Source: a virus (Duplodnaviria; Caudoviricetes). From it: 64,000 nucleotides of DNA. A model generated the notes under the pieces. That model did no database searches. It was given only the letters and a program-made list of their open reading frames with translations, and was not told the DNA's origin. The stretch is from IMG/VR virus record IMGVR_UViG_2870609773_000002, positions 15,181-79,180 of that record; one strand, given 5' to 3'. Position numbers and translations under genes: made by a program. This document shows, one piece after another, positions 5,562 to 63,372 of the stretch; position 1 is the stretch's first letter; each line of letters opens with the position of its first letter.

Positions 5562-5932
5562 CCGCCCAGCAGTCCGAGCCGGCCCGGCGCCCGCGCGAGG
5601 TCTTCCGCTTCGGCTTCTACGCGTGGAATATCAGCGCCGCCCTGCGCATCGTCGAGGGTCGCGAACCTGACCGCGTCAACGTCAAGGAGGCCGCCACTCT
5701 GCTGTGGCTGATCTACGTGAACGAGTCCCACGCCGCCACCGTGGACCTCGCCCAGCCCGTGCTCCTCGCCCCCTTCGCGGGCACCGGCCACATCCCCATC
5801 GACGGCTGGCACCGCATCTGGAAGGCAAGACGTGAAGGCGTCGAGACGCTTCCCGCGCTCGCCCTCACGCCCGAGGAGGAATTCCGGGTCCGGATGCACG
5901 GAGGCGACAAAGGCCCTGGCTATCACCGCTAA
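5558..5932 (+). CDS. Stand-alone ParB/Srx-fold protein
   Basis: PVLL...PIDGWHRIWKARREG matches the ParB N-terminal IDGxHR motif. Confidence 0.6.
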   Translation: MTAQQSEPARRPREVFRFGFYAWNISAALRIVEGREPDRVNVKEAATLLWLIYVNESHAATVDLAQPVLLAPFAGTGHIPIDGWHRIWKARREGVETLPALALTPEEEFRVRMHGGDKGPGYHR

Positions 5933-5950
5933 TAGCGGTACCACAATCAG
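5929..5950. promoter_or_regulatory. 22-bp palindromic site, copy 1 (CTAATAGCGGTACCACAATCAG)
   Basis: Matches consensus CTRAYWGCGGTACCGCWRTCRG; overlaps stop of ParB-like gene. Confidence 0.8.
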
Positions 5951-5951
5951 T

Positions 5952-5975
5952 TTCCCCGCCCGCCCGGGCGGGGAA
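5952..5975. terminator. GC-rich hairpin (terminator-like)
   Basis: Perfect 10-bp stem TTCCCCGCCC / GGGCGGGGAA, 4-nt loop. Confidence 0.5.
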
Positions 5976-6000
5976 GCTTCCCCCTCACCTGGAGAAGCAC

Positions 6001-6705
6001 ATGAAGAAGCTCGCCTTCCTCGACCTTGAGACGACCTCCCTCGACGAACGCCACGGCGACCTCTGGGAGATCGGCCTCATCATGCGAGACCTGCGCCAGC
6101 CGATCAGGACCGACGTCGAACACTGGTGGCAGGTCCGCCCGGACCTGACGCTCGCCGACCCGAAGGCGCTGGAGGTCGGCCGCTACTACGAGCGGTGCCG
6201 GGTCAGGCGCTCGTCCATCGGTGCCGGCCGGAAGCTCTCACCCGCCATCAACCTCGGTAGCCCGTGGATCCACGAGTACACCGGCGAGCCCCCGGCCGAG
6301 GGCGACTGGTACATGAGCGCCACCGCCGGAAGCATCGCCGCCACGGTCGCCCGAGAGCTGGACGGCGCCACGATCGTCGCCAACAATCCGACCCACGACC
6401 GCAAGTTCCTGGCGAAGTTCCTGCGGGTCCACGGGCAGCTCCTCACCGCCCACCATCGCATGATCGACATCCGCGCCCTGCTGATCGGCTACGTTGACGG
6501 CCGGCTGTCCGCCTACGACGGCAAGGTGGACGAGGCGTTCGAGGCTGAGGCCGTCCCGTACGTCGATGACTGGCTGGCCGGCTACATGGACAGCCCGTCC
6601 TGGGAGATCGTCGGCATCGCCCAGGACCCGGGTACGAAGCACACCGCGCTCGGCGACGCCCGCCTCGACCGCGACGTGTACGACGCCATCCGGAGCAGCC
6701 GATGA
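6001..6705 (+). CDS. DEDDh 3'-5' exonuclease (DnaQ-like)
   Basis: FLDLETT (ExoI), ANNPTHD (ExoII), HTALGDA (ExoIII). Confidence 0.88.
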   Translation: MKKLAFLDLETTSLDERHGDLWEIGLIMRDLRQPIRTDVEHWWQVRPDLTLADPKALEVGRYYERCRVRRSSIGAGRKLSPAINLGSPWIHEYTGEPPAEGDWYMSATAGSIAATVARELDGATIVANNPTHDRKFLAKFLRVHGQLLTAHHRMIDIRALLIGYVDGRLSAYDGKVDEAFEAEAVPYVDDWLAGYMDSPSWEIVGIAQDPGTKHTALGDARLDRDVYDAIRSSR

Positions 6706-7010
6706 CCGCCACCGTGAGCGGCATCCTGACCGCCGCCGCGGACCGCATCGAGAGCAGCGGATGGGCCTCGCACTACCAGCAGCCAGGCGTTTCGATCTGC
6801 GACGCCATCGCGCTGGAGGTCCGTGACGTGCCTGGTCCCAACAAGCTGAAAGCAGCGCTCCTCAACGCGGCCTTCGCCGCACTCCAACACCACATCGAAC
6901 CGGCAGGGATGTCCGACTGGCTTCGTGACCCCGACCGTACTCAGGCCGAGGTCGTTGCGGCTCTCCGGGAGGCCGCCGAGCGAGCCCCGGAGGAAGGACA
7001 TACCCCGTGA
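6702..7010 (+). CDS. Hypothetical phage protein (DUF6197-like)
   Basis: LTAAADRIESSGW...SICDAI...WLRDPDRTQAEVVAALREAA pattern; overlapping starts/stops. Confidence 0.6.
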   Translation: MTATVSGILTAAADRIESSGWASHYQQPGVSICDAIALEVRDVPGPNKLKAALLNAAFAALQHHIEPAGMSDWLRDPDRTQAEVVAALREAAERAPEEGHTP

Positions 7011-7336
7011 TCACAGGATGGGACGCTCTCTCCCTGATCTGGGCATGCGGCGTCGCCTACACCGCGCCGCGCATCCTCAAGCGGTGGTCGCTCATCACCA
7101 CCTGCGACCCCATCGACCTGTGCCAGGGCTGCCGCGACGAGCGCAGACAGGTCATGCAGGACGCCATGGTCTACGACGTCATGGGGCCTGCGGGCGGCGC
7201 CCTGCAAGTCCTGATAGAGGCGTTCATCTGGTACCTCAAGCCGTTCGTCCCCGCCCTCCGCAAGCTCGCCGGGCGTGAGCCGCTTCCCACCTGCTCGAAG
7301 GGCCCATGCCTGGCTTACACCCGCAGGCGGGCGTAA
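7007..7336 (+). CDS. Hypothetical protein
   Basis: GGAGGAAGGA RBS, GTGA overlap with previous gene. Confidence 0.6.
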   Translation: MITGWDALSLIWACGVAYTAPRILKRWSLITTCDPIDLCQGCRDERRQVMQDAMVYDVMGPAGGALQVLIEAFIWYLKPFVPALRKLAGREPLPTCSKGPCLAYTRRRA

Positions 7337-7384
7337 GCCACAGCGTCACCCACTCCACCTCTCCCTACACCGAAAGGAATCATC

Positions 7385-7600
7385 ATGAAGCCCACCATCC
7401 GCGTCGTCGTCTGCCTGATGGCGCTGCTGCTCATGCTGGCAATGTGGCTGACCTTCGCCTATCTGATGAAGGACACCGGCCTGATCACCTGGATCCTTGG
7501 CCTCGGCCTGGTCGCGGTGCTCATCATGGGCAACTGGATCACCGACCTGGCGGCCGACCAGCCGGCCGCGCGCGAGCCCGCGCAGGACGGTGAGAAGTGA
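7385..7600 (+). CDS. Small two-TM membrane protein
   Basis: GAAAGGA RBS; two hydrophobic segments. Confidence 0.7.
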   Translation: MKPTIRVVVCLMALLLMLAMWLTFAYLMKDTGLITWILGLGLVAVLIMGNWITDLAADQPAAREPAQDGEK

Positions 7601-7704
7601 TGGCTGTTGACTTCAGCCCCCTCGGAGTCACCGACGACCAAGCGCGCGACCTCTTCAAGCTCGGCGCGGCGTAGGCTGGTCCCGCGTATCTGCACACATA
7701 CGCG

Positions 7705-7742
7705 GAAAGCCCCGGCGCCTGCTGGCGCCGGGGCTTTCTTCT
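7705..7742 (+). terminator. Strong intrinsic terminator
   Basis: 15-bp perfect stem GAAAGCCCCGGCGCC / GGCGCCGGGGCTTTC with 4-nt loop and T/C tail. Confidence 0.85.
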
Positions 7743-7804
7743 CTCCGGGCGGCTCGTTGAGTCCCCATGTGTCTATAAAGGTTCCCAACATGTATGCTTC
7801 GGCC

Positions 7805-8290
7805 ATGACGAAACGAGGCCCCCGCGGGCCGGTGCCGATCTACCAGGTGATCATCAAGGCCATCAAGGACGACATCGCCGCCGGCACGCTGAGGCCCGGT
7901 CAAGCCCTGCCCACAGAGGCCGAGATGTGCACCATTCACCAGGCGTCGCGACTGACGGTGCGCAGAGCCCTGGAGGTCCTGCGCGAGGAAGACGTCATCT
8001 ACACCGTTCGCGCCGAAGGGTCCTACGTGGGGCCCCGCGACGCCCCGCAGATCCGCGAGCCGTGGGAGTTCGAGAAGATCGCGTCCGAGTTCGCCGACCG
8101 CATCAAGCGGGGCGACCTCAAGCCGGATGAGGTGCTCCCCTCGCAGTCGGAGCTAATCGAGCAGTACGGCGTGGCCAAGAAGACCGCCCGTGCCGCCATG
8201 GCCTTGCTGCGAGATCAGGGGTGGGTGTACACGGTGCCCACGATCGGAACGTTCGTTGCAAGCCGCGATAAATGGCCTACGGAGAGTTGA
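7805..8290 (+). CDS. GntR-family regulator with two tandem wHTH domains
   Basis: IYQVI...LPTEAEM...SRLTVRRAL...EGSYV and EKIA...LPSQSEL...VAKKTARAAM...IGTFV. Confidence 0.9.
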   Translation: MTKRGPRGPVPIYQVIIKAIKDDIAAGTLRPGQALPTEAEMCTIHQASRLTVRRALEVLREEDVIYTVRAEGSYVGPRDAPQIREPWEFEKIASEFADRIKRGDLKPDEVLPSQSELIEQYGVAKKTARAAMALLRDQGWVYTVPTIGTFVASRDKWPTES

Positions 8291-8370
8291 CCTTAGCGAT
8301 TGCTGAGAATGGCCTCGGCGCGCGATGTAGCCAATAGGTAGACACGGCTGCGTCGCGTGCCACTTTTATG

Positions 8371-8619
8371 TCAGCGACCGGAGCTGACCTGCTCTAACGC
8401 TGCGGCATATATATGCGCAGGGGTCGTGACGCCATTGACACGCGGCCGCCGGCGAGCGATCAGGGCCATCGCCGCGCAGGCCGCCAGGCAAGCGCCTGCC
8501 ATGACGACGATGTCGATACCGCCGAGCCTGTCGGTGAGGACGACGTGGACAACGGCTGCGCCAAACACCAGGTTGCCGACGACGAAGGCCGCCACGAGGG
8601 CCGCCACCGCTCGGTTCAT
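8371..8619 (-). CDS. Small two-TM membrane protein
   Basis: GAGAAAGG RBS before ATG at 8619; two hydrophobic helices, basic tail. Confidence 0.65.
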   Translation of the reverse strand: MNRAVAALVAAFVVGNLVFGAAVVHVVLTDRLGGIDIVVMAGACLAACAAMALIARRRPRVNGVTTPAHIYAAALEQVSSGR

Positions 8620-8915
8620 GTTTCCGCCTTTCTCTCGTGATTGATTGCCAGAGCGTTCTATCATCCCCGTCCGACAAGTGCGCACATCACCCGGGGTGCC
8701 CGCCCGGCCGACGCGTCGGTAACACATCCGTAATCTGGCAAGCTCCCGTGTCATAGAAGTGCCATGTCGCCAAGATGCTGCCCGAAAATGTAGACAATCC
8801 CGCGAGAAAGGACTTTTATGGTCACTCCATGACGTGACGCCTCGGAGTGACAAAAAGTCAACTGGGCGTCCGTATCCCTTGCGTTCGTATCGTTCCAACC
8901 CCTGGGGGTTCCACC

Positions 8916-9107
8916 ATGTCCAAGCTCATGGGAGCGCTCACGCGCCTGACCACGTACGCCATTGCCGTCGCCGCGGCCGGCCTGTTCCTGTCGGCGCCCA
9001 GCGTCGCCTACGCCGACGAGGCCATCCCGGCCGACACTCCGTCCAGCCCTCTCGTAAGCGAGACGCCCGCTGAGTCGGTGCAGTCCATCCACTTCGGCGG
9101 CATGTAG
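8916..9107 (+). CDS. Small secreted pre-peptide (63 aa), candidate signalling peptide
   Basis: Basic N-terminus, hydrophobic core, AYA|D signal-peptidase site; about 30-aa mature part ending SIHFGGM; GGGGG RBS. Confidence 0.7.
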   Translation: MSKLMGALTRLTTYAIAVAAAGLFLSAPSVAYADEAIPADTPSSPLVSETPAESVQSIHFGGM

Positions 9108-9157
9108 TCGCAGCACACGGCCAGGATGACGGTAAGGACCAGCCAGTACGGAGACTC

Positions 9158-9445
9158 ATGATCTGCCACGCCATCCGCATGTGGCTTCTGAACCTGACAG
9201 CGATGTCAGTCACGGCCTGGGCAATGACCGCCTTCGCGTTGTTCATTCTGTACGCGGATAGAGCAAGCGCCGCCGTGTACGCCCTGGTGGGCCTGTGGGC
9301 AGCCGCAGTGCCCATCCCCGTCACCATCACGCTCATCCGATGGTGGCAGCGGGTGCGTGTGGCCCGCAGGGTGCACCGCCTCGCCGAAGAACACAAACGT
9401 TTGTTCGAGACCATGTGTGGGGAGATCAGCTCAGGCGTGCGCTGA
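9158..9445 (+). CDS. Small two-TM membrane protein
   Basis: GGAG RBS; two hydrophobic stretches then basic/helical tail. Confidence 0.6.
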   Translation: MICHAIRMWLLNLTAMSVTAWAMTAFALFILYADRASAAVYALVGLWAAAVPIPVTITLIRWWQRVRVARRVHRLAEEHKRLFETMCGEISSGVR

Positions 9446-9483
9446 CTACTCACAGCCGCGCCATCATCGGGGAAGGAAACGAC

Positions 9484-10437
9484 GTGCCACACCGGATCGC
9501 CGGCCTCAGCCTTGAGCAGGAGCGCCTCTACCGGCACCTGCTCGCCACCGGGCCCACCAGCATCCACGTGTTGGAGGGGCAGTTCGGGCGCGAGGTCTAC
9601 GCGAGCCTGTACGAACTGACCGTCCGAGGCCTCGTGCACGGCAACCCCTTGATGGCGCGGCGCCCCTCGGTCGCCATGAACGGCGTCCTCATGGCGCAGG
9701 CCGCAGAGCTTCAGCGGATCCAGTCGTACGTGGAAGAACTTGATCACATCTACGAGACGGGGCACCCGCCCGAGGGGGGTGACGCGGTAACCCCGCTGGT
9801 GAGCCGTGAGCAGATCCAGCACTGGTTCGAGACGCTGACCGTCACGGCCGAACACGAGATCCAGCAGTTCATCACTCACCCGTTCCTCCCGCTCGCGCCG
9901 TCTGGGAGGACCGATTCAAATTCTCGTTTGGATCTTGTAAACCATCCGGCGAAGTGTCGCGTCATCGTTGAGTGGAAGACCTTCCAGAGCCAGCCCGCCA
10001 TCAACGGCCTGCATCACTCCCTCGACCGAGGGTGCGAAATCAGGCTTGCCGACAGGCTGCCGCACAAGCTGCTGATCGGAGACCGACGCATGGCCATGAC
10101 GCCCCGCTATCCGCGGGACCACACCGTCAGGCAGATGCTGCTCGTGCACCCGGGCACGCTGGTGGACTTCCTCGTCGAGGTCTTCGAGGCCGAATGGGAG
10201 CGGGCTCTCCCGCTCACGCCGGACCCTGCCAAATTCTCCGGCCTCGGCAAGCTGGAGCCCAGTGAGATGGTCATCGTGGAAATGCTGGTCGGCGGCGCAC
10301 ACGTCGATCGCATCGCCAGCGCTCTTGGAGTGCATCCCCGCACGGTCAATCGCAGGCTCGAAGACCTGAAGCGCAAGGCCAACGCCACCACCCTGTTCCA
10401 GCTCGGCGCCTACGCGTCGCGTCACTGGCTGAACTGA
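9484..10437 (+). CDS. TrmB-like wHTH + PLD-like sensor + C-terminal LuxR-type HTH regulator
   Basis: N-terminal LSLEQERLYRHLL HTH, middle EIRLADRLPHKLLIGDRRMAM, C-terminal DRIASALGVHPRTVNRRLEDL...TLFQLG; GGAAGGA RBS. Confidence 0.82.
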   Translation: MPHRIAGLSLEQERLYRHLLATGPTSIHVLEGQFGREVYASLYELTVRGLVHGNPLMARRPSVAMNGVLMAQAAELQRIQSYVEELDHIYETGHPPEGGDAVTPLVSREQIQHWFETLTVTAEHEIQQFITHPFLPLAPSGRTDSNSRLDLVNHPAKCRVIVEWKTFQSQPAINGLHHSLDRGCEIRLADRLPHKLLIGDRRMAMTPRYPRDHTVRQMLLVHPGTLVDFLVEVFEAEWERALPLTPDPAKFSGLGKLEPSEMVIVEMLVGGAHVDRIASALGVHPRTVNRRLEDLKRKANATTLFQLGAYASRHWLN

Positions 10438-10440
10438 GCG

Positions 10441-10965
10441 CTACTCCGGCCGGAAGATCCGAAGCTGAGCTTCTGTCGCGTTCAGGGTCGCCTCGATCTG
10501 GGCCAGCATGATCGTCTCTATCTGGCGGCGCTGGTCGCCTGGAACGCCCTTCAGGCCGCGTATCTGTTGCAGCATCGCCTGAAGTCTTTGCTGCACATGT
10601 TCAGGAGTTACGTCTGCGTCGATCGCCGCCAGTGCGGGGTCCGTCTTGGTCCGCTCGCGGATCCAATCGCGGAACAGTGCGGCCGCCCCAGGCCGGCCGC
10701 GCTCGTACAGGTCGTCCGGGGTGATGGTGGCTTCGTGTGCCAGGTCGGTGATGGCGGCGGCCATGAGTACGAGTTCGCGGTCTTCCGGGACCTTCTCGCC
10801 GGACTCGATGCGTCGCCATGTCGGCTCGGACAACGCGTCGCCGGCCAACTCCTTCGCGCGTGCGGCGGCGGCGCGAGTGGAGATGCGCTTCTTGAGCCCT
10901 CCCGGGTTGTTGCGACGTTCAATGAGGAACTGAACCACTTCTGAAGGCTTGTTGAGGTCGGCCAC
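10441..10965 (-). CDS. XRE-family immunity repressor (candidate)
   Basis: ISTRAAA...LSEPTWRRIESG HTH; divergent from the early lytic operon; AAAGGA RBS. Confidence 0.75.
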   Translation of the reverse strand: MADLNKPSEVVQFLIERRNNPGGLKKRISTRAAAARAKELAGDALSEPTWRRIESGEKVPEDRELVLMAAAITDLAHEATITPDDLYERGRPGAAALFRDWIRERTKTDPALAAIDADVTPEHVQQRLQAMLQQIRGLKGVPGDQRRQIETIMLAQIEATLNATEAQLRIFRPE

Positions 10966-11249
10966 GGCGAGTCAGAGGTCCTTTCGCGGCGTTTGATGCG
11001 TCATACGAGTCTGGCGCAACGGTATCAACTGAAGCGTCGGCTTGGGTTATGTCAGCGCAAAGACGTTGATTACGCTCCGTGACATATGCGAGGTAGCTGC
11101 GATGACGCAGAAGACGCGTCAGACGTTGCATGATGCGTCACGAAGCGATAGTGTCGGTTATGTCGGTCCGATTGTGCACACCCGAAAGGGAAACGCACTG
11201 ACAAAACGCCCGACAAACCAAACCCCAAGCCACGGAGCGTCATATCGCC
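10966..11249. promoter_or_regulatory. Divergent immunity control region with repeated motifs
   Basis: AT-richer; TGATGCGTCA at 10994 and 11131, TGACGCA at 11103, GTTATGTCRG at 11046 and 11157. Confidence 0.7.
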
Positions 11250-11555
11250 ATGCCCAACGGCATCCTCCGCTGGGAAGACCCAGCGCCCGTCAGAACTCGC
11301 ACCAACAAGGAGTACGAGCCTGTAGCCGCCGAACTGCAAGCCCGCCCCAACGAGTGGGCGGTCATCGCAGAGAACCCCGACACCCCCGAAGGCAGGCGTG
11401 ACGCCAACCGCCTGTTCAACGCCGTCAAGAACGGCTACCGAGGCTGGAACAACGACGACGGCGGCACGTTCGAGGCCACCACCCGCACCGTCACCAAGAA
11501 CGGCGGAGCCAAGGTCATCCTCGTTCACGTGCAGTACGTCCCCGCCAGCTCATAG
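11250..11555 (+). CDS. First early-operon protein, probable small DNA-binding protein
   Basis: YEPVAAELQARPNEWAVI motif recalled from actinophage small proteins. Confidence 0.65.
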   Translation: MPNGILRWEDPAPVRTRTNKEYEPVAAELQARPNEWAVIAENPDTPEGRRDANRLFNAVKNGYRGWNNDDGGTFEATTRTVTKNGGAKVILVHVQYVPASS

Positions 11556-11570
11556 CGGTACCGCAGTCAG
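11549..11570. promoter_or_regulatory. 22-bp palindromic site, copy 2 (CTCATAGCGGTACCGCAGTCAG)
   Basis: Consensus match; overlaps stop codon, 1 bp before next ATG. Confidence 0.8.
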
Positions 11571-11571
11571 C

Positions 11572-11778
11572 ATGACCAACACCACGCAAGCGCCGACTCT
11601 CGACGACCTGGTGCAGCTCATCGCCACAAGAGCTGCCGCGCACTGGAACTCCGATGCCAAGTCCGCGCTCACCCGTCTGCTCGCCGACGTCCTCGGCGAC
11701 TACGACGCCGCTTACCAGCTCGTCGAGGAGACCGGCCGAAAGCTCCTGGCCGCCGAATACGAAGAGGACCCCCAATGA
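11572..11778 (+). CDS. Hypothetical protein
   Basis: ATG at 11572; ATGA overlap with next gene. Confidence 0.6.
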   Translation: MTNTTQAPTLDDLVQLIATRAAAHWNSDAKSALTRLLADVLGDYDAAYQLVEETGRKLLAAEYEEDPQ

Positions 11779-15050: not shown

Positions 15051-15108
15051 CCGCACTGCCCGGTGCTCGTGCACCGCGCGCCGGGCTCGCCCCCCTCAAG
15101 GAGTTCCG

Positions 15109-15363
15109 ATGAAGTCCATCACCGTCGAGTACGACGACGTCACCCCCGCCACGATCGAGCACCGGCTGGCCGCCGAGGAGACCGTCCTCGCGATGGGCAG
15201 CCGCCGCTACCCCGCCGCCCTGAACGACCGGGCCGCCCTGCTGGAGGCCCTCCAGATCGCTGACCGGCTGTCCGCCGCCGTCGTCGGCTGGCGCGGCGAC
15301 ATCGTGGCCGCGCTGCAGAAGCTCGACAACGACCAGTACGCCCGCGAGAACGCCACCACCTGA
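15109..15363 (+). CDS. Hypothetical protein
   Basis: AAGGAG RBS, ATG at 15109. Confidence 0.7.
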   Translation: MKSITVEYDDVTPATIEHRLAAEETVLAMGSRRYPAALNDRAALLEALQIADRLSAAVVGWRGDIVAALQKLDNDQYARENATT

Positions 15364-17544: not shown

Positions 17545-18467
17545 CACGAGACCCCTACGCCGAAGCCCGACGCCGCTACTGGCAGAAACGCGACAAGGAG
17601 AAGAGAGCGGGCACCTGGCAGGGCCTCGTCGATGCCGAAGAAGCGCGCCAGCACGTGCGGGAGTTGCATCGAATTTGGCTGGTCAGCTACGAGGCAATCG
17701 CCGAACTCGCAGGGATCTCGCACACGACAGTAAGGCACCTCGCTGTAGGCAGTGCGACTCGGCAGCTACCGCCACCGGCTCGGGTCGGGGCGTACACAGC
17801 CGAAGTGCTTCTCACGGTCACCGTGGACGACCTGCCGGACAACTGCCTGGTCAACGCGACCGGGTCAATGCGGCGGATGCGCGCGCTATCGGTCGAGGGG
17901 TGGCCCGTGCGGTACATCGCCAACCAGATGGACGCCGCCTGGGACGGTCTCAAGCAGCTTCGGCGCGGCGAGAGAACCACGGTCGTCCTACGAACTGCCC
18001 GCCTGCTCCGGCGGACGTACGACGAACTGATCCTCCTCGACCCGTACGCGCACTGCCGCAAGACCGTCGTGACGACCCTGCGCAAGCAGGCCGCCGCCAG
18101 CGGCTGGTATCCAGCGGCAGCGTGGGCCGACGCCATCGACGACCCCGCCGCCAAACCATGGCATGTCGTCCGCTGCTCCTACCAGACCTGCATCAACGGG
18201 TCCAAGGACGAGCGCCTGCTGTGCGACACCCACCTGAAGCTGCTCAAGAAGCGGGGCACCCTCGAAGGGGCCCGCCTGATGCGGAACACCCAGGCCCTGC
18301 TGGAAGACGCCCGGTTCATCCTCGCGACGGACCCGCCGATCAACCCGCGCACGCAGGAGATCGACAAGGAGCGGCTCGCCGAACGGCTCGGCACCAACTG
18401 GGAAGCGCTGGAGCGCGTCCTGCTCCGAGCGAACATCAACCTCGGCAAGCTGCGCGAATCCGCATGA
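17541..18467 (+). CDS. Multi-HTH DNA-binding phage protein
   Basis: LVDAEEARQHVREL...AIAELAGIS; VNATGSMRRMRAL..EGW pattern. Confidence 0.7.
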   Translation: MTRDPYAEARRRYWQKRDKEKRAGTWQGLVDAEEARQHVRELHRIWLVSYEAIAELAGISHTTVRHLAVGSATRQLPPPARVGAYTAEVLLTVTVDDLPDNCLVNATGSMRRMRALSVEGWPVRYIANQMDAAWDGLKQLRRGERTTVVLRTARLLRRTYDELILLDPYAHCRKTVVTTLRKQAAASGWYPAAAWADAIDDPAAKPWHVVRCSYQTCINGSKDERLLCDTHLKLLKKRGTLEGARLMRNTQALLEDARFILATDPPINPRTQEIDKERLAERLGTNWEALERVLLRANINLGKLRESA

Positions 18468-18513
18468 GCCAGAAGCGGAACCGCAATCAGGTAGTCGAGC
18501 AGGAGCAACGCCC

Positions 18514-18810
18514 ATGAGCAACACGGCGACCGAGGTCATCTCCGACGCCCTTACGTCCACCTCACCCAGCGCCGACGACATCCTCGACGCCCTCGGCAAC
18601 GCGGGCTACCACGTCATCCGACCCGAGGACGGGCCGGCCTGGATCCCCGTCACGCCGAGAAGCCTCGCCAAGGCGCAACGCATCGCAGCGCTGATCAACG
18701 ACGGCAAGACGCTGCAGCAGATCGCCGCTGAGACGCGGATGTCGCTGCGCCAGGTCGAACGGTACAGCGCCGCCGCCCGCGACATGGGACTCATCGAGCG
18801 GAGGCGCTGA
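18514..18810 (+). CDS. HTH protein (sigma region 4-like C-terminus)
   Basis: GKTLQQIAAETRMSLRQVERY. Confidence 0.7.
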   Translation: MSNTATEVISDALTSTSPSADDILDALGNAGYHVIRPEDGPAWIPVTPRSLAKAQRIAALINDGKTLQQIAAETRMSLRQVERYSAAARDMGLIERRR

Positions 18811-23588: not shown

Positions 23589-23610
23589 CTAATAGCGGTA
23601 CCGCTATCGT
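23589..23610. promoter_or_regulatory. 22-bp palindromic site, copy 3 (CTAATAGCGGTACCGCTATCGT)
   Basis: Consensus match, between the J-domain gene and the initiator. Confidence 0.8.
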
Positions 23611-25238: not shown

Positions 25239-26144
25239 GTGCAGATACGAACAAGCGAACGGCTCGCGTGGCTCACCGCAGTTGCGGCGCTCGCGTTCCT
25301 AGTAGCCAACACGCAGGCAGGAGGGGATGTGACCACGGCAACGCTGGTAGCGGACGAACCAACCGCGACCGTCACTGTCAGCGGTCCCCCCGGCCCGCCC
25401 GGACCCCAGGGCCCCCAGGGCGACCCCGGACCGATGGGCCCCCAGGGACCGCAAGGCGAACCCGGCGCGTCCGGCCCGCCCGGACCGCAGGGCAACGCCG
25501 GACCGATGGGAACCCCCGGACCTTCCGGCCCGCCCGGTCCCCAGGGCGACCCCGGACCTACGGCAACCGTCACCGCCGTACCGGTCCCCGGGCCCAAGGG
25601 CGACAAGGGCGACAAGGGCGACGCCGGACCCCAGGGCGAGCAAGGGCCCGCCGGACCGTCCGGCCCTCCGGGACCATCCGGCCCACCCGGACCCCAGGGC
25701 GACCAGGGCGACACCGGCCCCAAGGGCGACCCCGGACCGACCGGACCGCAGGGCGACCCCGGACCCACCGGAAGCGCCGGGCCATCCGGCCCGCCCGGCA
25801 CCGGCGACCCCGGACCGACTGGAGCCGCAGGGCCCGCCGGACGGGACGGCACCGCAGGGAGCCCCGGACCGTCCGGCAAGCCCCGATCGCCCGGACCCAA
25901 GGGCGACCAGGGCGACCCCGGAACGGCGGACACGCCGGAACCCGGCGAGATCGACGCGGCGAACACGGCCAACGGCGACCCCGTGACCGTGTGGGCCGCG
26001 TGGCTTGCCGCCCTGCTGGCAGTCGGAGCCGCCACGCTCGGACTGCTGATCAGGCGGCGACGCCGCAACCGCAGACCGGCCAGCGAAACCGCTGGTCAAC
26101 CTGCTAACAGCGGTACCGCTATCGACGACACACAGCAGCTCTAA
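25239..26144 (+). CDS. Collagen-like surface protein (signal peptide, Gly-X-Y repeats, C-terminal TM)
   Basis: 20 uninterrupted GXY triplets, a short linker, then more than 30 further triplets with small breaks; TM followed by RRRRR. Confidence 0.85.
26104..26125. promoter_or_regulatory. 22-bp palindromic site, copy 4 (CTAACAGCGGTACCGCTATCGA)
   Basis: Consensus match in the last codons of the collagen gene. Confidence 0.8.
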
Positions 26145-26202: not shown

Positions 26203-26841
26203 ATGCAGATCACCATCAACCCCGCCGAGATCTTCGACGCCATCGAGCGCGTCACCGTCGCCCACAAGGCCACGTTCTCCCGTCAGGGCATCTCCCGCCC
26301 GACCGGCAACGTCGTGATCGGTCTGGCCGCTTCCGGCCGCCTTGACGAGCTGGCGAACGCCGACTCTGAGGGCAGCGTCGCAGACCGCATCATCACCGGC
26401 GACGAGCTGAAGGACCTGCCCGCCGAGTACATCGCCACTCTCGGCACCGGCAAGAACGCGCCCAAGTTCACGACGTACGCCCTGATCGGCATGCGCGTCG
26501 CCGCACAGCTCGGGTTCGGACAGGCGACCCTCGCGGAGCTGGGCAAGGTGCCCGGCACCAGCGCCACCAAGGTGCAGAACTTCCTTGCTGAGCTTCCCGA
26601 GATGGCCGAGTACCGCAAGGAGATCGAGGCCCGTAAGAAGGCCGCCGCGAAGGTCGCCGCCGACACGGCCGCCGTCCGCCTCGTGTGGAAGTTCGCCGAG
26701 AAGTTCAAGGCCCCGCACAGCGAAGAGACGTACGCGGAGGTCATGGAGGAGCGCGGCATGTCGTTCGACCGCGTGCAGGAGATCATCCGGCTTCTGACCG
26801 CTGAGGCCGACGTCAAGGCCGCCGAGAAGGCCGACGCCTAA
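26203..26841 (+). CDS. Hypothetical helical protein
   Basis: GAAAGG RBS; strongly biased codon usage. Confidence 0.75.
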   Translation: MQITINPAEIFDAIERVTVAHKATFSRQGISRPTGNVVIGLAASGRLDELANADSEGSVADRIITGDELKDLPAEYIATLGTGKNAPKFTTYALIGMRVAAQLGFGQATLAELGKVPGTSATKVQNFLAELPEMAEYRKEIEARKKAAAKVAADTAAVRLVWKFAEKFKAPHSEETYAEVMEERGMSFDRVQEIIRLLTAEADVKAAEKADA

Positions 26842-28562: not shown

Positions 28563-29312
28563 TTACGTACAGGGCGTGATCCCACGTCGAGCCACCTTGA
28601 GGGGAAGTGAATGGATGGTGAAGGCGACGTCGTCAGGCCATGTGTCTAACCCGATCCAGTCATCGAAGACGGGTATGGGCTCAGGTGGTGATGTCCGCGT
28701 GGGTCTCGTCCACGTCTGTCCCTCCGTCCATATGACGGATGCATTGGCGATGGTCAATTCTTGACTGCCGCCAGTGTCGTCCAGCTTGCTCGCCGATTCC
28801 TGGAGCACGATTTGGCCTTCGCTGCACGGTTCGACGATGACTTCCCAGAGCTCAGTCGGCAGCTTGGTGGGGCGATGCAGGACGTATACGTATGCCCGCC
28901 GAGAGTTGGCGTTGCGCACGTTCCAGGACCAGGCGTCAGGGACGGTTCCGTAGGCCTCGTCGGCGATATGGATACGGCTAGGAAACGCGATCTTGGCGAT
29001 GGCGTCCGCTTCGGCCTTGGCCTGTGCTTCCCTTTTCTTGTCCTCTGCCCGCTGGGCGAGAGCGTCCGCACGCTGTTGCTGGCCGAGTTCGAGAGCGTTC
29101 AAAGAGATGATGAGCGCGGGAACGGACATGAGGCCAGCGACAACGCTGGTGAGGGCGGCCCACCATTGGACGGACCAGCGGACATCGCGGAGTCTCCGGC
29201 GCTGGCGCGGCTTGAGCCGTTGGCGTTCGGCGATCACTCTTGTGGTGCGAGCTGAGGAACGCGATGCGAGACCGCGATCTATGGACGGTCGGGGGCGTCG
29301 GCGTGCGCTCAC
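28563..29312 (-). CDS. Single-TM accessory (moron) protein; start uncertain
   Basis: TM WWAALTSVVAGLMSVPALIISL, coiled segment, beta-rich C-terminus; lower GC, opposite strand. Confidence 0.6.
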   Translation of the reverse strand: MSARRRPRPSIDRGLASRSSARTTRVIAERQRLKPRQRRRLRDVRWSVQWWAALTSVVAGLMSVPALIISLNALELGQQQRADALAQRAEDKKREAQAKAEADAIAKIAFPSRIHIADEAYGTVPDAWSWNVRNANSRRAYVYVLHRPTKLPTELWEVIVEPCSEGQIVLQESASKLDDTGGSQELTIANASVIWTEGQTWTRPTRTSPPEPIPVFDDWIGLDTWPDDVAFTIHSLPLKVARRGITPCT

Positions 29313-29389: not shown

Positions 29390-29411
29390 TTGATTGCGGT
29401 GCCGCTGTTGG
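29390..29411. promoter_or_regulatory. 22-bp palindromic site, copy 5 (TTGATTGCGGTGCCGCTGTTGG)
   Basis: Reverse complement CCAACAGCGGCACCGCAATCAA fits the consensus. Confidence 0.65.
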
Positions 29412-45569: not shown

Positions 45570-45591
45570 CTGATTGCGGGACCGCAATTAG
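45570..45591. promoter_or_regulatory. 22-bp palindromic site, copy 6 (CTGATTGCGGGACCGCAATTAG)
   Basis: Consensus match directly upstream of the major capsid gene. Confidence 0.8.
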
Positions 45592-48896: not shown

Positions 48897-48918
48897 CTGA
48901 TTGCGGTACCGCAATCAG
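48897..48918. promoter_or_regulatory. 22-bp palindromic site, copy 7, perfect (CTGATTGCGGTACCGCAATCAG)
   Basis: Self-complementary over all 22 bp; upstream of the major tail gene. Confidence 0.85.
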
Positions 48919-50802: not shown

Positions 50803-53175
50803 GTGACGCTGAACGTTGGCGAACTCTTCGCGACCATCGACGTGAAGGACCGGGGCACGAGCAAGGTCAACCGGTTCATGACCTTCATGCGCGACGCCGC
50901 GAAGAAGCTCGACCTCGACGCGGGCAAGCTCGCCAAGTCGGCCGGCTCGGTGGGTGTCAAGGCCACAGCTACGGCGCTCCAGGTGTCCTCCATGGCAGCT
51001 TCGATGGCCGCCGCCGCGCAGGGCGCGGTCGGTCTGGTCGCGGCCCTGGCTCCGGCGGCGGGTATCGTCGCTGCTCTGCCGGGCGCGATCGCTCTCGGGC
51101 AGGCGGCGCTGGCCACTCTCAAGATCGCCTTGGCTGGCGTGGGCGACGCTTTCTCCGCCGCACTGGGCGACGACCCGAAGAAGTTCGAGGAAAGCCTGGC
51201 GGGGCTCTCACCTGCGGCGCAGGCCGCCGCGCGCGAGCTGCACTCGGTCAAGCCCGCGATCGACGGGCTGCGGTCCGCCGTCCAGGACGCCTTCTTCGCG
51301 CCGCTGGCCGGCCAGATCCGAGCTGTAGCGGACGCCGTGGTCGGGCCGCTGGCCAGTGGGATGCAGGGCGTGGCGCGGGAGTTCGGTCTCGCCGGTGCGG
51401 AGGCGGCGCGGTTCGCCTCCTCCTCGGCGACGGTGGCGGCCATCTCGTCCATCTTCGGATCGCTGCGTTCGGCGGTCGCTGCACTGCAGCCCGCCATCCA
51501 GCCCGTGCTGGCTGGCTTTCGTGACATCGCTGTGGTGGGCGCGTCCTTTTCGTCGGGGCTGGTTCCCGGCATCGCGTCGGCGGCTCAGCGGTTCGGAGAG
51601 TTCCTGTCCAATGCCGCTAACAGCGGTACCGCTCTTAGCTGGATGCAGGGCGCGGTGGACGTGTTCAAGCAGCTCGGACAGGTCGGCGGTGACGTGATCG
51701 GCATCGTCAAGTCGATCTTCTCGGCGATGTCCTCGGGCGGGTCCGGGGCGCTGGGCGTGGTTGGCCAGCTTCTTGATCAGCTCAACGCCTTCTTGGCGAG
51801 CGCTCAGGGCCAGCAGGCGCTCGTGGCGATCTTCACTGCGTTGTCGCAGGTCGGAAGCGCCTTGATGCCGATCTTCCGGGCGCTCGGTGGCGCGCTGGCG
51901 CAGGTGGCGCCGCACATCGGTGCCATCGCGACGGCGCTGGGTCCGGGGCTTGCCGCCGCGGTGTCCGCGCTCGGGCCAGCCTTGGCGGCCTTGGGTCCTG
52001 GGCTGACCATGGTCGCCCAGATGCTCGCACAGGCGTTCGCATCGCCGGAGCTGCAGTCCGGGCTGCTCATGCTCGGTCAGGGGCTCTCTGCCGCGCTCTC
52101 CGCACTCGCTCCTTTGCTGCCAGCGGTAGCGCAGTTGGCAGGCATCGTGGGCCAGGTCCTCGGCATTGCGCTGAGTAATCTCTCGGCTGCGCTCGGTCCG
52201 GTGATCAGTGCCTTGTCGAGTGCCCTGCAACCTGCCCTCGCGTCCATTTCGTCCGCTTTTGCCCAACTCGGGCCTGCGATGCAGCCCATTTATGCAGCTT
52301 TCGGTCAGATAGCGGGCGCAATTGTGCAATCCGTGCTGCCGCCGATCCTGCAGCTAGTCCCTTCGCTGCTAAATGGGCTAGTTCCTGCCTTTGTCGAACT
52401 GATCAATGCCGTTAATCCGCTTATTCCGCTTTTGACCGATTTGCTGGTCATGGCGATCAAGGACATCCTGCCTGCGGTCGTGCCCGTCATCCCGATCGTG
52501 ACTCAACTCGGAGTCGCCTTCGTGCAGATGGGCGCCAAGGTGGCCCAGATCGTCGCGCAGATCAAGCCCGCCATCGAGGCCGGAGTCGCGATCTTCCGCT
52601 GGATGTACAACATCCTCGTCGGCAATTCGATCATCCCCGACATGGTCAACGCCATCGGCACGTGGATCGGCACGAAGCTCATCGGCTGGTTCTCGGCGCT
52701 GCCAGGCAAGATCAAAAACGCGATGTCGTCCATAGGCCCGACCATGGCAGGCATTGCCCAGGACGTGGTCTCAGGCTTCTGGAACAAACTCCAGTCGCTG
52801 GCCAGCGGGCTGTACAACAACGTCCGCAACTTCTTCTCCAACATCGTCAAGAGCGCCAAGGACGCCCTCGGCATCAAGTCGCCGTCGAAGGTGTTCGCCC
52901 AGATCGGAGCCTTCATGATGCAAGGCATGTCGATCGGCGTGGACAAGGCCCGCGGGGTCGTCATGTCGTCGCTGAAGAAGGTGGCCACGCTGGCGACGCG
53001 GACTGCGATGCCGGACCTGTCGGTGCCGGGTGTGACCGTCCCGGACGGGATCGGCAGTGGGCGCGCCATGTCGCGGACGGTGGTCAACGTGACGAACCAC
53101 TACCCGCAGGCGGAGCCGACCTCCGTGACCGTGAACCGGTCGCTCCAGTACGTCGGCGCGATGGGAGTGATCTGA
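50803..53175 (+). CDS. Tape measure protein
   Basis: 790 aa, Ala/Gly/Leu-rich amphipathic repeats, LGIKSPSKVF motif. Confidence 0.93.
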   Translation: MTLNVGELFATIDVKDRGTSKVNRFMTFMRDAAKKLDLDAGKLAKSAGSVGVKATATALQVSSMAASMAAAAQGAVGLVAALAPAAGIVAALPGAIALGQAALATLKIALAGVGDAFSAALGDDPKKFEESLAGLSPAAQAAARELHSVKPAIDGLRSAVQDAFFAPLAGQIRAVADAVVGPLASGMQGVAREFGLAGAEAARFASSSATVAAISSIFGSLRSAVAALQPAIQPVLAGFRDIAVVGASFSSGLVPGIASAAQRFGEFLSNAANSGTALSWMQGAVDVFKQLGQVGGDVIGIVKSIFSAMSSGGSGALGVVGQLLDQLNAFLASAQGQQALVAIFTALSQVGSALMPIFRALGGALAQVAPHIGAIATALGPGLAAAVSALGPALAALGPGLTMVAQMLAQAFASPELQSGLLMLGQGLSAALSALAPLLPAVAQLAGIVGQVLGIALSNLSAALGPVISALSSALQPALASISSAFAQLGPAMQPIYAAFGQIAGAIVQSVLPPILQLVPSLLNGLVPAFVELINAVNPLIPLLTDLLVMAIKDILPAVVPVIPIVTQLGVAFVQMGAKVAQIVAQIKPAIEAGVAIFRWMYNILVGNSIIPDMVNAIGTWIGTKLIGWFSALPGKIKNAMSSIGPTMAGIAQDVVSGFWNKLQSLASGLYNNVRNFFSNIVKSAKDALGIKSPSKVFAQIGAFMMQGMSIGVDKARGVVMSSLKKVATLATRTAMPDLSVPGVTVPDGIGSGRAMSRTVVNVTNHYPQAEPTSVTVNRSLQYVGAMGVI
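51617..51638. promoter_or_regulatory. 22-bp palindromic site, copy 8 (CTAACAGCGGTACCGCTCTTAG), intragenic
   Basis: Consensus match inside the tape measure gene. Confidence 0.75.
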
Positions 53176-54046: not shown

Positions 54047-54113
54047 GGGCCAATGTGGTGCACAGGACTGGTAGAGCGTTGGGATGCTACGGGATCGGCA
54101 TGGATCTGTAATC

Positions 54114-57589: not shown

Positions 57590-57590
57590 C

Positions 57591-58067: not shown

Positions 58068-58231
58068 CGCAGGACCTGGTGGTTGAGCCCGCGCGGATCA
58101 TCGCCGTGCTGCGCCGCCGCATCGAGGAGCTGACGTATGAGAACGCCGTGCTGTCGGCGGCGGTGGACCAGCAGCGCGACGAGATCAACGAACTGAGGGG
58201 GGCCAGCGGTGCAGGTGATCATCCCAGGTAA
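58064..58231 (+). CDS. 55-aa coiled-coil tail-region protein (absent from the ORF track)
   Basis: GTGA overlap; VTQDLVVEPARIIAVLRRRIEELTYENAVLSAAVDQQRDEINELRG. Confidence 0.65.
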   Translation: MTQDLVVEPARIIAVLRRRIEELTYENAVLSAAVDQQRDEINELRGASGAGDHPR

Positions 58232-60986: not shown

Positions 60987-60999
60987 ACAGGGAGATCAT

Positions 61000-61665
61000 G
61001 TGACGCCGAATGTCGTGCAGGCGTGGGACGCCGAGCTGGGATACTCGCACGTCCACCTGGCGAACCGCCCACCGGGAGGGCCGGTTGAGATTCCTTCGGG
61101 AACGACCGGGGGTGAACCGGTATGGGGTGTTTGGACGGTGAATCCTATTGGGCAGGAGGGCGTGTGGTTCATCCAGCATTCGATGCTGGAGTGGCGGTCG
61201 AGCGCGTACGGCATCGACCCGGACGATGTGGAGACGCTGCTGGACGTGTGCTTTCACGAGTGGTTCTTCCCGAACCCGAACGATCCCCTGATCGTGCACG
61301 ATGAGGTGGCCACGCAGATCCTGCGTGAGACCAGGGACTTGCCCTCGGTGTGGACGCCGGGCGTGTCCGATGAGGCTCGCCGCGATGCGCACCTGGAGAA
61401 GATTCGCCTGGTGAAGGAGCGCGTGGCGCGGGTGGAGGCGGCGCCCAGGCAAGATCGGCAGGACGCTCTGCTCTTTGTCGGGTCCGCGCGCGTGGCACCG
61501 TCCGACCCGCTGGAGCCGATCAAGGCCCACACCCGGCTCGACCCCATTCGCGTTGCCGGGAAGAAGCAATACCTGGAGTGGCGGCGAGCAACGGCGGACG
61601 GGCCGGTCACGCCCACTTTCGAGCTCAAGCCGCCGGCGACGTTCAGAGGGATGGTGCCAGGGTGA
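61000..61665 (+). CDS. Tail-associated protein B (chaperone-like)
   Basis: GGGAG RBS; LEPIKAHTRLDPI vs LAPLKSHVRIDPV in paralog A. Confidence 0.7.
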   Translation: MTPNVVQAWDAELGYSHVHLANRPPGGPVEIPSGTTGGEPVWGVWTVNPIGQEGVWFIQHSMLEWRSSAYGIDPDDVETLLDVCFHEWFFPNPNDPLIVHDEVATQILRETRDLPSVWTPGVSDEARRDAHLEKIRLVKERVARVEAAPRQDRQDALLFVGSARVAPSDPLEPIKAHTRLDPIRVAGKKQYLEWRRATADGPVTPTFELKPPATFRGMVPG

Positions 61666-62000
61666 CCGAGGAGACGCCCAATCTCGCGCTGGCACTGTCG
61701 GAGCTACGGAGCGCCGTCGAGTTGGGGTTTGAGCGCACCAACGGGTCTACGGCGCTCATCTTGCAGCGCCTCGAATGGGTGGACGATCGTCACGCCGAGC
61801 TGGTGAAGAGGGTTGAGCAGAATCAGGCCGCCGCCGAGCTGCGATATGTCGCGCTGGAGTCCCGCGTGGACGTCATGGAGCGGGAGGCCGTGACGCGTAC
61901 GCAGCTCACCGAGCGGACCCGTCAGATCATTGCCGTCGTCACCGTCCTGGTTGCCGTGGCGGGCGCGGTTATCGCGCTGATCCAGCTCACGCGCGGCTGA
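61662..62000 (+). CDS. Coiled-coil protein with C-terminal TM (lysis-module, holin-like)
   Basis: Heptads then IIAVVTVLVAVAGAVIALI. Confidence 0.65.
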   Translation: MTEETPNLALALSELRSAVELGFERTNGSTALILQRLEWVDDRHAELVKRVEQNQAAAELRYVALESRVDVMEREAVTRTQLTERTRQIIAVVTVLVAVAGAVIALIQLTRG

Positions 62001-62022
62001 TCCAGCGATCGCCCGACGTAGC

Positions 62023-62235
62023 TCACATCTTGGGACCGATGTTGATGTGGGTCATATTCCGGCTGCAGTCGATGTTGTCGTTGTTGGTGGAGAGTATCGG
62101 GACGTCGATCACTCTGATCGAGTTGCAGTTCAGCACGTTGATGTCGTCCTGGGCAGCCGACGGGCTTGCTGCGATGGCGAGTATGGCTGCGGCCGAAAGC
62201 AGGGTTGAGGTGAGGGTGATCGCGATGCGGCGCAT
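62023..62235 (-). CDS. Small secreted rodlin/chaplin-like protein (moron)
   Basis: Signal peptide ending SAA|Q; mature DDINVLNCNSIRVIDVPILSTNNDNIDCSRN with 2 Cys; own AT-rich upstream region. Confidence 0.6.
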   Translation of the reverse strand: MRRIAITLTSTLLSAAAILAIAASPSAAQDDINVLNCNSIRVIDVPILSTNNDNIDCSRNMTHINIGPKM

Positions 62236-62388
62236 GGTGTGTTCTCCCATCTAAGGGGCTACGGGGTCAGTCTTCATGATTGCCGCACCAGTCGTGACAG
62301 AACGTAATTATCGGTTACATAGAGATATCTGTAGAGGTCAGCGCCTCTACCCTGAGGTGTCCGCACACAATTCCAAGGGGAGCAACTC

Positions 62389-63354
62389 ATGCCCTGGCTT
62401 ACGCAGCTCGCGGACGTCGCCCGCGCAACCGGCTTTCCGGTGACGGAGGTCGGCGGATGGAAGACTCGCGGGCACGGCCCGCAGCCCTCTGTCGAGGGCG
62501 TGGTATGCCACCACACCGCCGGGTCTAATGACCGGCACGTCGTGGTGAACGGCAGGCCAGGACTGGAGGGGCCGCTGTCTCACATCTGGCTGCAGCACAC
62601 TGGCCGGATCTGGGTCGTCGCCGCTGGGCGGTGCTGGCACAACGCGCCGAGCACCAGTTCGCACCACATGAACAGCACGAGCATCGGAATCGAGGCCGAG
62701 AACGACGGCCGCAGTCCGTGGCCGCAGGTGCAGCTCGACGCCTATTACGCGCTGTGCGCCGAGCTGTGCCGCGAGTTCGGCCTGCCCGCCAGCAGGGTGG
62801 CGGGTCACAAGGAGGTCAACACCGGCAAGGTGGACCCCCACTCGATCAACATGAACTCGTTCCGGTCACGCGTAGCCGCGCTGATCAAGAACCCCGGAAC
62901 GCCCATCGAGCAGCAGGAGGACGACGTGCCCGAGGTCATCTCTCTGGGTGCCGGTGATGACCAGGCGGTCCCGGCCGGTGGCGAGTTGGCGGTGCGCTGG
63001 CACACCGAGTACACGGACGACCCGCCCGGTCACAACGCGGACGGCGTCGCCGTCATGGCTAAGGCTGCGCGTTGGTGCATCGTGGACGGCCTGGTGAAGG
63101 TCCGCGGGCTGAAGCCGGGCACGGAGATCGACGTAGCCTGGTCGCGCTACTCGCGGGACGGCAAGGAGTTCGAGGACGACGCCTGGAGGCTGTCCTTCCG
63201 CGCCGACGCCAACGGCCGCGTCGAGTCCAGCGTGGGCGGCCAGTTCGCGCTCAACACCAAGAACCAGCTCCGGCTCCGGATCATCAACCCGACCGACGCC
63301 GCGGCGGTCGTCGAGAAGGTGACCATGGCCAAGATCGCCATGTTCAGCCGCTAA
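62389..63354 (+). CDS. Endolysin, N-acetylmuramoyl-L-alanine amidase (Amidase_2)
   Basis: CHHTAG, CWHNA, SIGIEAEN, AGHKE, DP. Confidence 0.92.
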   Translation: MPWLTQLADVARATGFPVTEVGGWKTRGHGPQPSVEGVVCHHTAGSNDRHVVVNGRPGLEGPLSHIWLQHTGRIWVVAAGRCWHNAPSTSSHHMNSTSIGIEAENDGRSPWPQVQLDAYYALCAELCREFGLPASRVAGHKEVNTGKVDPHSINMNSFRSRVAALIKNPGTPIEQQEDDVPEVISLGAGDDQAVPAGGELAVRWHTEYTDDPPGHNADGVAVMAKAARWCIVDGLVKVRGLKPGTEIDVAWSRYSRDGKEFEDDAWRLSFRADANGRVESSVGGQFALNTKNQLRLRIINPTDAAAVVEKVTMAKIAMFSR

Positions 63355-63372
63355 TTGCGGTTCCGCTTTCGA
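63351..63372. promoter_or_regulatory. 22-bp palindromic site, copy 9 (CTAATTGCGGTTCCGCTTTCGA)
   Basis: Degenerate consensus match overlapping the endolysin stop. Confidence 0.65.

Follow-up and report, generated by a model that had tools for sequence, protein, structure and literature searches.

Short dispersed repeats are common in actinophages, and only the Cluster A stoperators are understood mechanistically. The conserved inverted repeats (CIRs) of phiC31, 17 bp long and located mainly in the early region, are recognized by the main (c) repressor. Cluster A stoperators, such as the sites of L5 gp71, are asymmetric 13-14-mers that are oriented with transcription and recognized by a monomeric two-domain helix-turn-helix (HTH) repressor, which also acts at the early promoter (PMC9283540, PMC6550527). 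Cluster O mycobacteriophages (Corndog and relatives) carry more than 30 copies of 17-bp dyad repeats, TGTTCGG-NNN-CCGAACA, for which the authors predicted a dimeric binder; many of the repeats are intergenic, some lie in genes, most are not tied to promoters, and both binder and function are unknown (PMC4351075). Here, we describe a 22-bp palindrome that recurs throughout a 64,000-nucleotide stretch of tailed-virus DNA (Caudoviricetes; IMG/VR record IMGVR_UViG_2870609773_000002, positions 15,181 to 79,180). This whole stretch is referred to as the window, and coordinates are those of the window unless another contig or locus is named. The window comprises bases 15318-79317 of C2 (96,733 bp, 67.9% GC), the second contig beside a 12.78-Mb chromosome, C1 (71.5% GC); the host is a Nonomuraea-like soil actinomycete, and C2 is a 97-kb temperate phage. 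Our leading interpretation, which we hold tentatively and at somewhat less than even confidence, is that the palindromes are operator sites for a phage-encoded symmetric DNA-binding protein, most likely one with tandem ribbon-helix-helix (RHH) modules, which would bind gene junctions and silence them.

The C2 palindromes resemble stoperators, phiC31 CIRs, and Cluster O repeats in kind. As with Cluster A stoperators, many sites are dispersed over the genome of a temperate actinophage and often occupy short gaps between genes; from one related phage to another, the motif changes together with a phage protein; and a block to elongation is the proposed mode of action. Unlike stoperators, the C2 site is a 22-bp palindrome in which only the central dinucleotide is asymmetric, and only in some lineages. 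It is also absent from the repressor switch, and the protein favored as its binder is not the XRE repressor but a separate RHH protein. Because two defining features are missing, namely oriented asymmetry and presence at the repressor's own promoter, the palindromes are not members of the stoperator class. With phiC31 CIRs they share a palindromic form and occurrence at many loci in a temperate phage of a mycelial actinomycete, and C2 has an early-region protein with a match to the Gp3-like family of Pfam, whose description is recombination directionality factor-like; unlike the CIRs, however, the C2 sites extend into the late region and the lysis region and are missing from the switch of the main repressor. 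The Cluster O repeats likewise combine short inverted arms and a small variable spacer with many copies over an actinophage genome that are not linked to promoters, but their sequence is different, their copies number more than 30 as opposed to 14-17 here, and their arms are invariant rather than degenerate. Moreover, the C2 phage is temperate and encodes an integrase, whereas the Cluster O phages lack one. The present system goes beyond Cluster O in offering lineage-specific variants of the motif and a named candidate binder.

Nine copies of the palindrome had been listed in an earlier annotation of the window made from its letters alone (the sequence-only reading). All nine were recovered, with 0-3 mismatches to the consensus proposed there, and the copy at 48897, claimed to be perfect, is indeed a perfect palindrome. 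The same degenerate-pattern scan revealed an additional weak copy at 52117. A palindromic position weight matrix (PWM) was then derived from the sites, and those scoring 25 or more were classed as strong. On the 96.7 kb of C2, this matrix detected 14 strong copies, made up of the nine already listed and five beyond the window on the same replicon (C2 3929, 5516, 8822, 14574, and 93762), along with three weaker ones at window positions 18469 (score 21), 52117 (17), and 4749 (17).

The palindrome is phage-specific. An equal frequency in the host or in shuffled sequence, which the sequence-only reading had set against its own proposal, was not observed: 100 dinucleotide-preserving shuffles contained no match (0 expected by chance), and chromosome C1 held no strong site by PWM, the best score anywhere on it being 18.4. 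When approximately 400 genomes of the host's family were scanned, most of the genomes that lack a related phage did not exceed background, as judged by a reversed-pattern control. Exact-pattern scans of public collections returned mostly single chance matches, and true relatives could be separated only by re-scanning with the PWM. Two other explanations were tried and rejected. A host regulon is contradicted by the lack of chromosomal sites and by the background counts in most family genomes without a related phage, while a restriction or methylation target (the GGTACC core is a KpnI-type site) is contradicted by the non-palindromic centers, GGAACC and GGTTCC, used by relatives.

The sites are placed at gene junctions far more often than the share of intergenic DNA predicts. 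According to our own codon-usage gene calls, 14.6% of C2 is intergenic, yet 11 of the 14 strong sites fall there (binomial P = 1.5e-7). The remaining three lie within genes, one of them the tape measure gene, in which the copy at 51617 had been correctly located by the sequence-only reading. Most sites either overlap a stop codon or follow one by no more than 15 bp, with the next start codon 1-77 bp further on. The earlier description of this arrangement was borne out, as the copies at 5929, 11549, 26104, and 63351 overlap a stop and those at 23589, 45570, and 48897 lie 3-15 bp past one; the genes said to follow were also as claimed, and encode a DnaQ-type exonuclease, a Rep-O-like protein, the major capsid protein, and the major tail protein. 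Several sites adjoin a separate GC-rich hairpin, and the site at 29390 occupies a divergent intergenic region.

Comparison with related phages (designated here by G numbers) showed that both the placement and the core of the motif are maintained. The close relatives G001 (an IMG/VR provirus), G002, and G003 contain 8-12 copies each, located at orthologous junctions and carrying substitutions mostly at degenerate positions. Orthologous copies of the site at 11549 occur in all three, those of 18469 in G001 and G002, and those of 45570 in all three as well as in G268 and G164. In the latter two phages, whose capsid proteins are 83-89% identical to that of C2, the arms are kept and the centers read GGAACC or GGTTCC; the central dinucleotide is thus free. 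These asymmetric centers show AA on the coding strand more often than TT (about 16 to 7, counted by eye), an excess that may represent a weak orientation bias relative to transcription. The more distant G101 and G119 (capsid 75%, early proteins 26-45% identical) hold 11-13 copies of the variant CGAATGCGG-NN-CCGCATTCG, compared with 0-2 for controls. One of these copies is found at the junction before the major tail gene, at the same place as the C2 copy at 48897. Further arm variants were identified in G473 (GACAGCGG), G098 (GCCAGCGG), G512 (GCTAGCGG), and the group of G498, G452, G517, and G496 (GCAAGCG(G/A)). Overall, the outer bases of the relatives fall into the classes GATWGCGG, GAATGCGG, GACAGCGG, GCTAGCGG, and GCAAGCGG, and in distant relatives the inner GCGG-NN-CCGC is constant while the outer bases follow lineage. 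A constant core with lineage-bound outer bases is what co-evolution of a DNA-binding protein and its site is expected to produce, and such a pattern has been described for stoperators (PMC6550527). Among isolated phages, the nearest by capsid are the Streptomyces phages Keanu (64% identity between major capsid proteins), Galactica, and Hiyaa; the Hiyaa genome contains no such palindrome, and its repeated word is CCGCCACCGCCCC.

With arms of the form xxRAYWGCGG and a free central dinucleotide, the palindrome is best read as the binding site of a symmetric protein rather than as a hairpin, because its arms vary nearly independently and its sequence is conserved well beyond the needs of pairing. 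Indeed, positions 6 and 17 pair in only eight of the 14 strong C2 sites, and in a set of 80 sites taken from six related phages, complementary bases occur at 7.46 of 10 arm pairs, compared with 7.12 when the arms are shuffled. This small excess can be explained by lineage-specific half-site preferences, and a covariation reading was rejected on the same figures. It is therefore highly unlikely that the palindromes work as RNA structures between cistrons, whether to terminate or attenuate transcription or to serve as RNase III-type processing sites like those of T7. The perfect copy can fold into a 9-bp stem with a 4-nt loop, and the sites do lie between cistrons, several of them beside GC-rich hairpins; however, complementarity at the variable pairs amounts to only 54-68%, which hardly exceeds the value for shuffled arms, and there is no U-tract.

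Which protein binds the palindromes was approached by comparing the phage's regulators across lineages. Under a strict stoperator or CIR model, the XRE-like repressor encoded at 10441-10965 would itself bind the 22-mers and thereby silence the prophage. This protein is a classical repressor by position, being encoded on the minus strand and divergently from the early operon; it is present in nearly all lineages, with a recognition helix that varies among them, and in C2, G268, and G164 its start is preceded, at a distance of approximately 590 bp, by one strong site. However, its own divergent switch is without the motif in any lineage. In C2, the switch region (10965-11250) has no 22-mer match (best PWM score -5.6) and instead contains repeated TGAYGCGTCA boxes, which are also found at C2 3708, 3745, 1575, and 96188, upstream of two other gene blocks, and in the G119 lineage ATTACGC boxes occupy the same switch position. 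The TGAYGCGTCA palindromes are the probable operators of the XRE repressor. Furthermore, many arms in G164 are of the GACAGCGG type, although the recognition helix of its XRE protein hardly differs from that of C2. On balance, we consider it unlikely that the XRE protein is the binder.

Other regulators encoded in the window were weighed in the same manner, namely a LuxR-type protein (9484-10437), a tandem winged-HTH protein of the GntR type (7832-8290), and the small HTH proteins that follow site 29390. LuxR-type dimers can bind 7-2-7 inverted repeats, and GntR sites follow a GT..AC rule. The layout of two half-sites around NN would suit both NarL/LuxR-type and GntR proteins; in addition, the recognition helix of the LuxR-type protein varies by lineage in step with the motif class, and site 29390 is immediately followed by MerR-like and HTH_58 genes. 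Nevertheless, the LuxR-type gene has been replaced in G119, a phage that retains 11-12 sites, the small GntR was not found in G101 or G119, and there is no site upstream of either the LuxR-type or the GntR gene. That any of these proteins binds the palindromes thus seems rather improbable. At the position of the LuxR-type regulator, G119 encodes an XRE (HTH_31) protein with a DUF5753 domain (L176 4980-5888), and the regulator that converges on the repressor has therefore been exchanged in this phage. Separately, the Rep-like gene was rejected as a universal binder because it was not found in G268.

The remaining universal DNA binder, and the best candidate for the palindrome according to its distribution and predicted structure, is the 177-residue protein encoded at 4300-4833. 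Its gene runs against the bulk of the phage genes and immediately precedes the TilS gene of the phage, which is on the same strand; a conserved MPR start sets its length at 177 residues. In the AlphaFold2 model, the chain forms two beta-alpha-alpha modules, the first with a strand at residues 45-50 and helices at 54-67 and 71-85, the second with a strand at 126-131 and helices at 132-145 and 149-171, and the block-mean pLDDT is approximately 90 or more over most of these elements. The best Foldseek matches are F-plasmid relaxosome chains (approximately 110 residues), which we take to be TraY, followed by VirC2, DndE, and AvtR. All Atlas neighbors with an assigned family belong to RHH families, TraY, ParG, and CB_ParB_C clusters among them. 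Whereas the C2 protein itself has no Pfam or PHROG match, its G119 homolog hits Pfam RHH_10 with E = 3.8e-4 and 21.1 bits, below the cut-off of 27. Together, the model, the Foldseek and Atlas matches, and the RHH_10 hit assign a predicted tandem RHH fold to the protein. Like F TraY, Agrobacterium VirC2, and the archaeal virus regulator AvtR, the candidate carries two RHH modules in one chain; unlike them, it shows no detectable sequence similarity to these proteins, bears a long disordered basic N-terminal tail, and stands in a phage regulatory context rather than a relaxosome.

The tandem-RHH family is small (55 clusters at 50% identity), and a member was found in 36 of 401 genomes of the order and in every motif-bearing lineage examined. 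The motif also tends to occur at the gene itself. In 11 of 12 lineages, the 500-bp window at the 5' end of the RHH gene contains a match to the lineage's own motif that ranks in the top 1-26% of that element's windows; the promoter windows of the XRE gene are not enriched in this way. The Fisher-combined value is 1e-5 for the RHH windows versus 0.99 for the XRE windows, but it is no true probability, the lineages being related and hence not independent. In the C2 group, the copy (4749 in the window) sits within the disordered and otherwise variable N-terminal tail, where it encodes the only conserved residues, AEPQS, of which AEPQ is nearly invariant in the alignment, and a stronger copy occupies the equivalent position in G003 and G164. 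The second strand of the RHH protein contains one invariant Arg flanked by variable residues. Two tandem paralogs of the gene occur at G098:C75:64164-65000 and also in G473, G457, G524, and G511. The sequence-only reading had named XRE, RHH, GntR, and ParB proteins as possible binders; of these, the RHH protein has emerged as the best candidate, and each of the others is disfavored by specific results. The coordinates of the sites and of the two principal candidate binders are collected in Table 1.

Table 1. Copies of the palindrome in the window and genes for the two principal candidate binders.
Feature	Position	Strand	Context
Candidate binder, two RHH modules in one chain, 177 aa	4300..4833	-	Proposed from fold model, structure matches, and co-occurrence
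Weak copy, TCGATTGCGGTTCCGCTGGCGG	4749..4770		PWM 16.8; within 5' coding region of the tandem-RHH gene
Strong copy	5929..5950		Overlaps stop of gene 5552-5932; 50 bp before exonuclease gene; followed by GC-rich hairpin
XRE-like repressor candidate (rival binder)	10441..10965	-	Divergent from early operon; switch region 10965-11250
Strong copy	11549..11570		Overlaps stop of first rightward gene past the immunity switch; 1 bp to next gene
Intermediate copy, center GGAACC	18469..18490		PWM 21; between genes 17805-18467 and 18514-18810
Strong copy	23589..23610		3 bp past DnaJ-domain gene; 30 bp before Rep-O-like gene
Strong copy	26104..26125		Overlaps stop of collagen-like open reading frame; then hairpin, then gene 26203-26841
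Copy	29390..29411		Divergent region; abuts conserved promoter-like TTGCGC-17-TAACAC facing MerR/Xis-like HTH gene
Strong copy	45570..45591		Between scaffold-like gene and major capsid gene
Perfect palindrome	48897..48918		24 bp before major tail protein gene
Strong copy	51617..51638		Within tape measure gene; kept in G001 and G002
Weak copy	52117..52138		Within tape measure gene; better preserved in G002, lost in G001
Copy	63351..63372		Overlaps stop of endolysin gene; 14 bp before next gene

Several points weigh against the RHH protein as a silencer of these junctions. Its identification as the binder rests on co-occurrence, site position, and fold, and co-occurrence is weak evidence when all of the phages compared are related. 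The XRE protein is likewise present in almost all lineages, and its recognition helix is also lineage-variable. In C2, only a weak copy accompanies the RHH gene, and it forms part of the coding sequence; in G473 the copy at the RHH gene falls outside the 500-bp window that was tested. Within a single motif class, the beta-strand residues differ, and no simple code relating residues to outer bases could be derived. Finally, expression of the protein in the lysogen is assumed from gene orientation only, and control during the lytic phase would be equally compatible with the sites that immediately precede the genes for the capsid and major tail proteins.

If the RHH protein is the binder, each chain would supply a single beta-sheet reading head, so that a pair of chains would cover a site, one on each arm and about one helical turn apart, as in the Arc tetramer. 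The invariant Arg of the second strand would read the invariant GCGG, and its variable neighbors would read the variable outer bases. The protein would probably be made in the lysogen, as its gene points against the lytic genes and shares its strand with the TilS gene just downstream. Bound at approximately 15 junctions, it may act as a roadblock or insulator against read-through into the early, capsid, tail, and lysis genes, and would thus form a second layer of control beside the XRE repressor, which would govern the switch promoters. The weak copy in or just before its own gene may provide autoregulation. Extended to the relatives, this mechanism would give a large family of Streptosporangiaceae temperate phages a second genome-wide regulatory layer, distinct from the immunity switch, in which a tandem-RHH protein acting on roughly 10-17 junction palindromes has co-diversified with its sites into at least five classes sharing the GCGG core; we put this broader proposal forward more hesitantly, as a possibility worth considering. 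The interpretation offered by the sequence-only reading is thus partly supported. A genome-wide regulatory network for a phage-encoded binder fits all of the findings, namely phage specificity, intergenic placement, orthologous junctions, and lineage variants; the partition site offered as its alternative fared less well, as described below.

The main rival as regards function is lytic timing or activation, in which the binder would be correctly or nearly correctly identified, but the sites would act during lytic growth to time or boost expression of downstream genes, such as those for capsid and major tail, instead of silencing the prophage. Sites do lie 14-30 bp before the starts of the genes for the two most abundant virion proteins, a placement kept in distant lineages, and site 29390 abuts the -35 element of its conserved promoter-like sequence, a typical position for an activator. 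AvtR, the tandem-RHH viral regulator recovered by Foldseek, both represses and activates. Most sites, however, leave no room for a promoter before the start codon, no conserved promoter-like element flanks those sites, and the candidate gene is oriented against the lytic genes. We regard a lytic role as unlikely. In the RNA runs, contigs of a related phage make up as large a share as they do in the DNA run from the organism concerned, and the runs are therefore uninformative on expression and RNA ends.

The system joins a clear motif to natural specificity variants across related prophages and to a named candidate binder with a simple fold. Should silencing by the RHH protein prove correct, RHH proteins would be able to organize phage-wide transcription control, constituting an RHH-based counterpart of the stoperators and a testable starting point for explaining orphan dyad repeats, the Cluster O repeats among them. 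It would also offer orthogonal operator-repressor pairs for genetic tools in high-GC actinomycetes.

The gene content of C2 bears on whether the palindromes could serve in partition. C2 carries a tyrosine integrase gene at its left end, structural and lysis genes (terminase subunits, major capsid, major tail, tape measure, and endolysin), genes for a second Xer-like recombinase and a ParB_N protein adjoining the terminase genes, and a right arm with GntR, WhiB, SsgA-like, and FtsK-like genes. Its last 57 bp (96677-96733) match chromosome C1 at 7753957-7754012 with 98% identity; the shared segment reads like the 3' end of an acyl-CoA-dehydrogenase-like open reading frame (ORF) (IFEGTSEIQRLII) and is the probable attP/attB core. 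Nonomuraea sp. NEAU-A123 (G002) harbors an integrated phage with 85% identity, the ends of which correspond to those of the C2 contig. Thus, C2 is, to judge from its integrase, the att match to the chromosome, and the integrated relative, an integrative temperate siphophage. It was assembled as a separate contig, the ends of which are exactly the prophage ends of the integrated relative.

The sequence-only reading had offered a distributed partition site, like that of N15, as an alternative to regulation. In such a scheme, of which N15 and the KorB/OB sites of RK2 are examples, the palindromes would form a distributed centromere, and the partition adaptor loaded there would serve a prophage kept outside the chromosome. 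With RK2 KorB/OB and N15 centromeres, C2 does share a palindrome dispersed over a mobile replicon, which could in principle be both operator and centromere. C2 is also a separate contig, and RHH proteins bind centromeres in type Ib and type II partition, with ParG and CB_ParB_C represented among the Atlas neighbors of the candidate. However, no ParA (AAA_31, CbiA) or tubulin/TubZ-type NTPase was detected on C2 with profiles that matched the chromosome and thus served as working controls, and StbA_N and ALP_N (ParM-type) searches found nothing on C2, although their controls were weak. Unlike RK2 and N15, C2 has no ParB-HTH binder beside a ParA, its only ParB_N protein being the terminase-associated one, which also disfavors ParB as the binder. 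In view of this protein inventory, the integrase, the att match, and the integrated relative, partition was not supported and appears very improbable.

A role in recombination was considered last, with the 22-mers as module-boundary sequences at which crossovers shuffle gene cassettes between related phages. Homology with four relatives (G001, G002, G268, and G164) starts at site 29390, within 15 bp of it, and a homology block ends within 60 bp in eight of 12 site-bearing gaps compared with 17 of 46 other gaps. This enrichment of breakpoints is not significant, however (Fisher P = 0.10), most sites lie inside colinear conserved blocks, and recombination would leave both the lineage-specific variants and the dyad symmetry unexplained. 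We thus find this explanation scarcely credible.

Several further features of the phage were noted. A collagen-like (Gly-X-Y repeat) ORF at 25299-26107 lies in the early/replication region, distant from the tail genes, and matches tail-fiber PHROGs only via its repeats. Next to the divergent region, a minus-strand ORF of 249 amino acids (28563-29312) has lower GC content, a basic N-terminus, and one transmembrane helix, and is located in a region of reversed GC skew; the cargo segment around it differs in every relative, with homology resuming exactly at palindrome 29390. Beginning at window position 64066, shortly beyond the window's end, metabolic genes are clustered on the minus strand (C2 79383-85907; L002 184-6708); this block encodes a serine hydroxymethyltransferase, an ABM monooxygenase, a PhyH-type dioxygenase, an LPG-synthase-C-like protein, and two methyltransferases, and looks like a small biosynthetic cargo cluster. 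Further along, a GntR/UTRA regulator gene stands divergent from WhiB-like, SsgA-like, and FtsK/SpoIIIE-like genes (C2 88294-95561; L002 9095-16362), a module that recalls actinomycete conjugative elements. The palindrome at C2 93762 lies within the FtsK-like gene.

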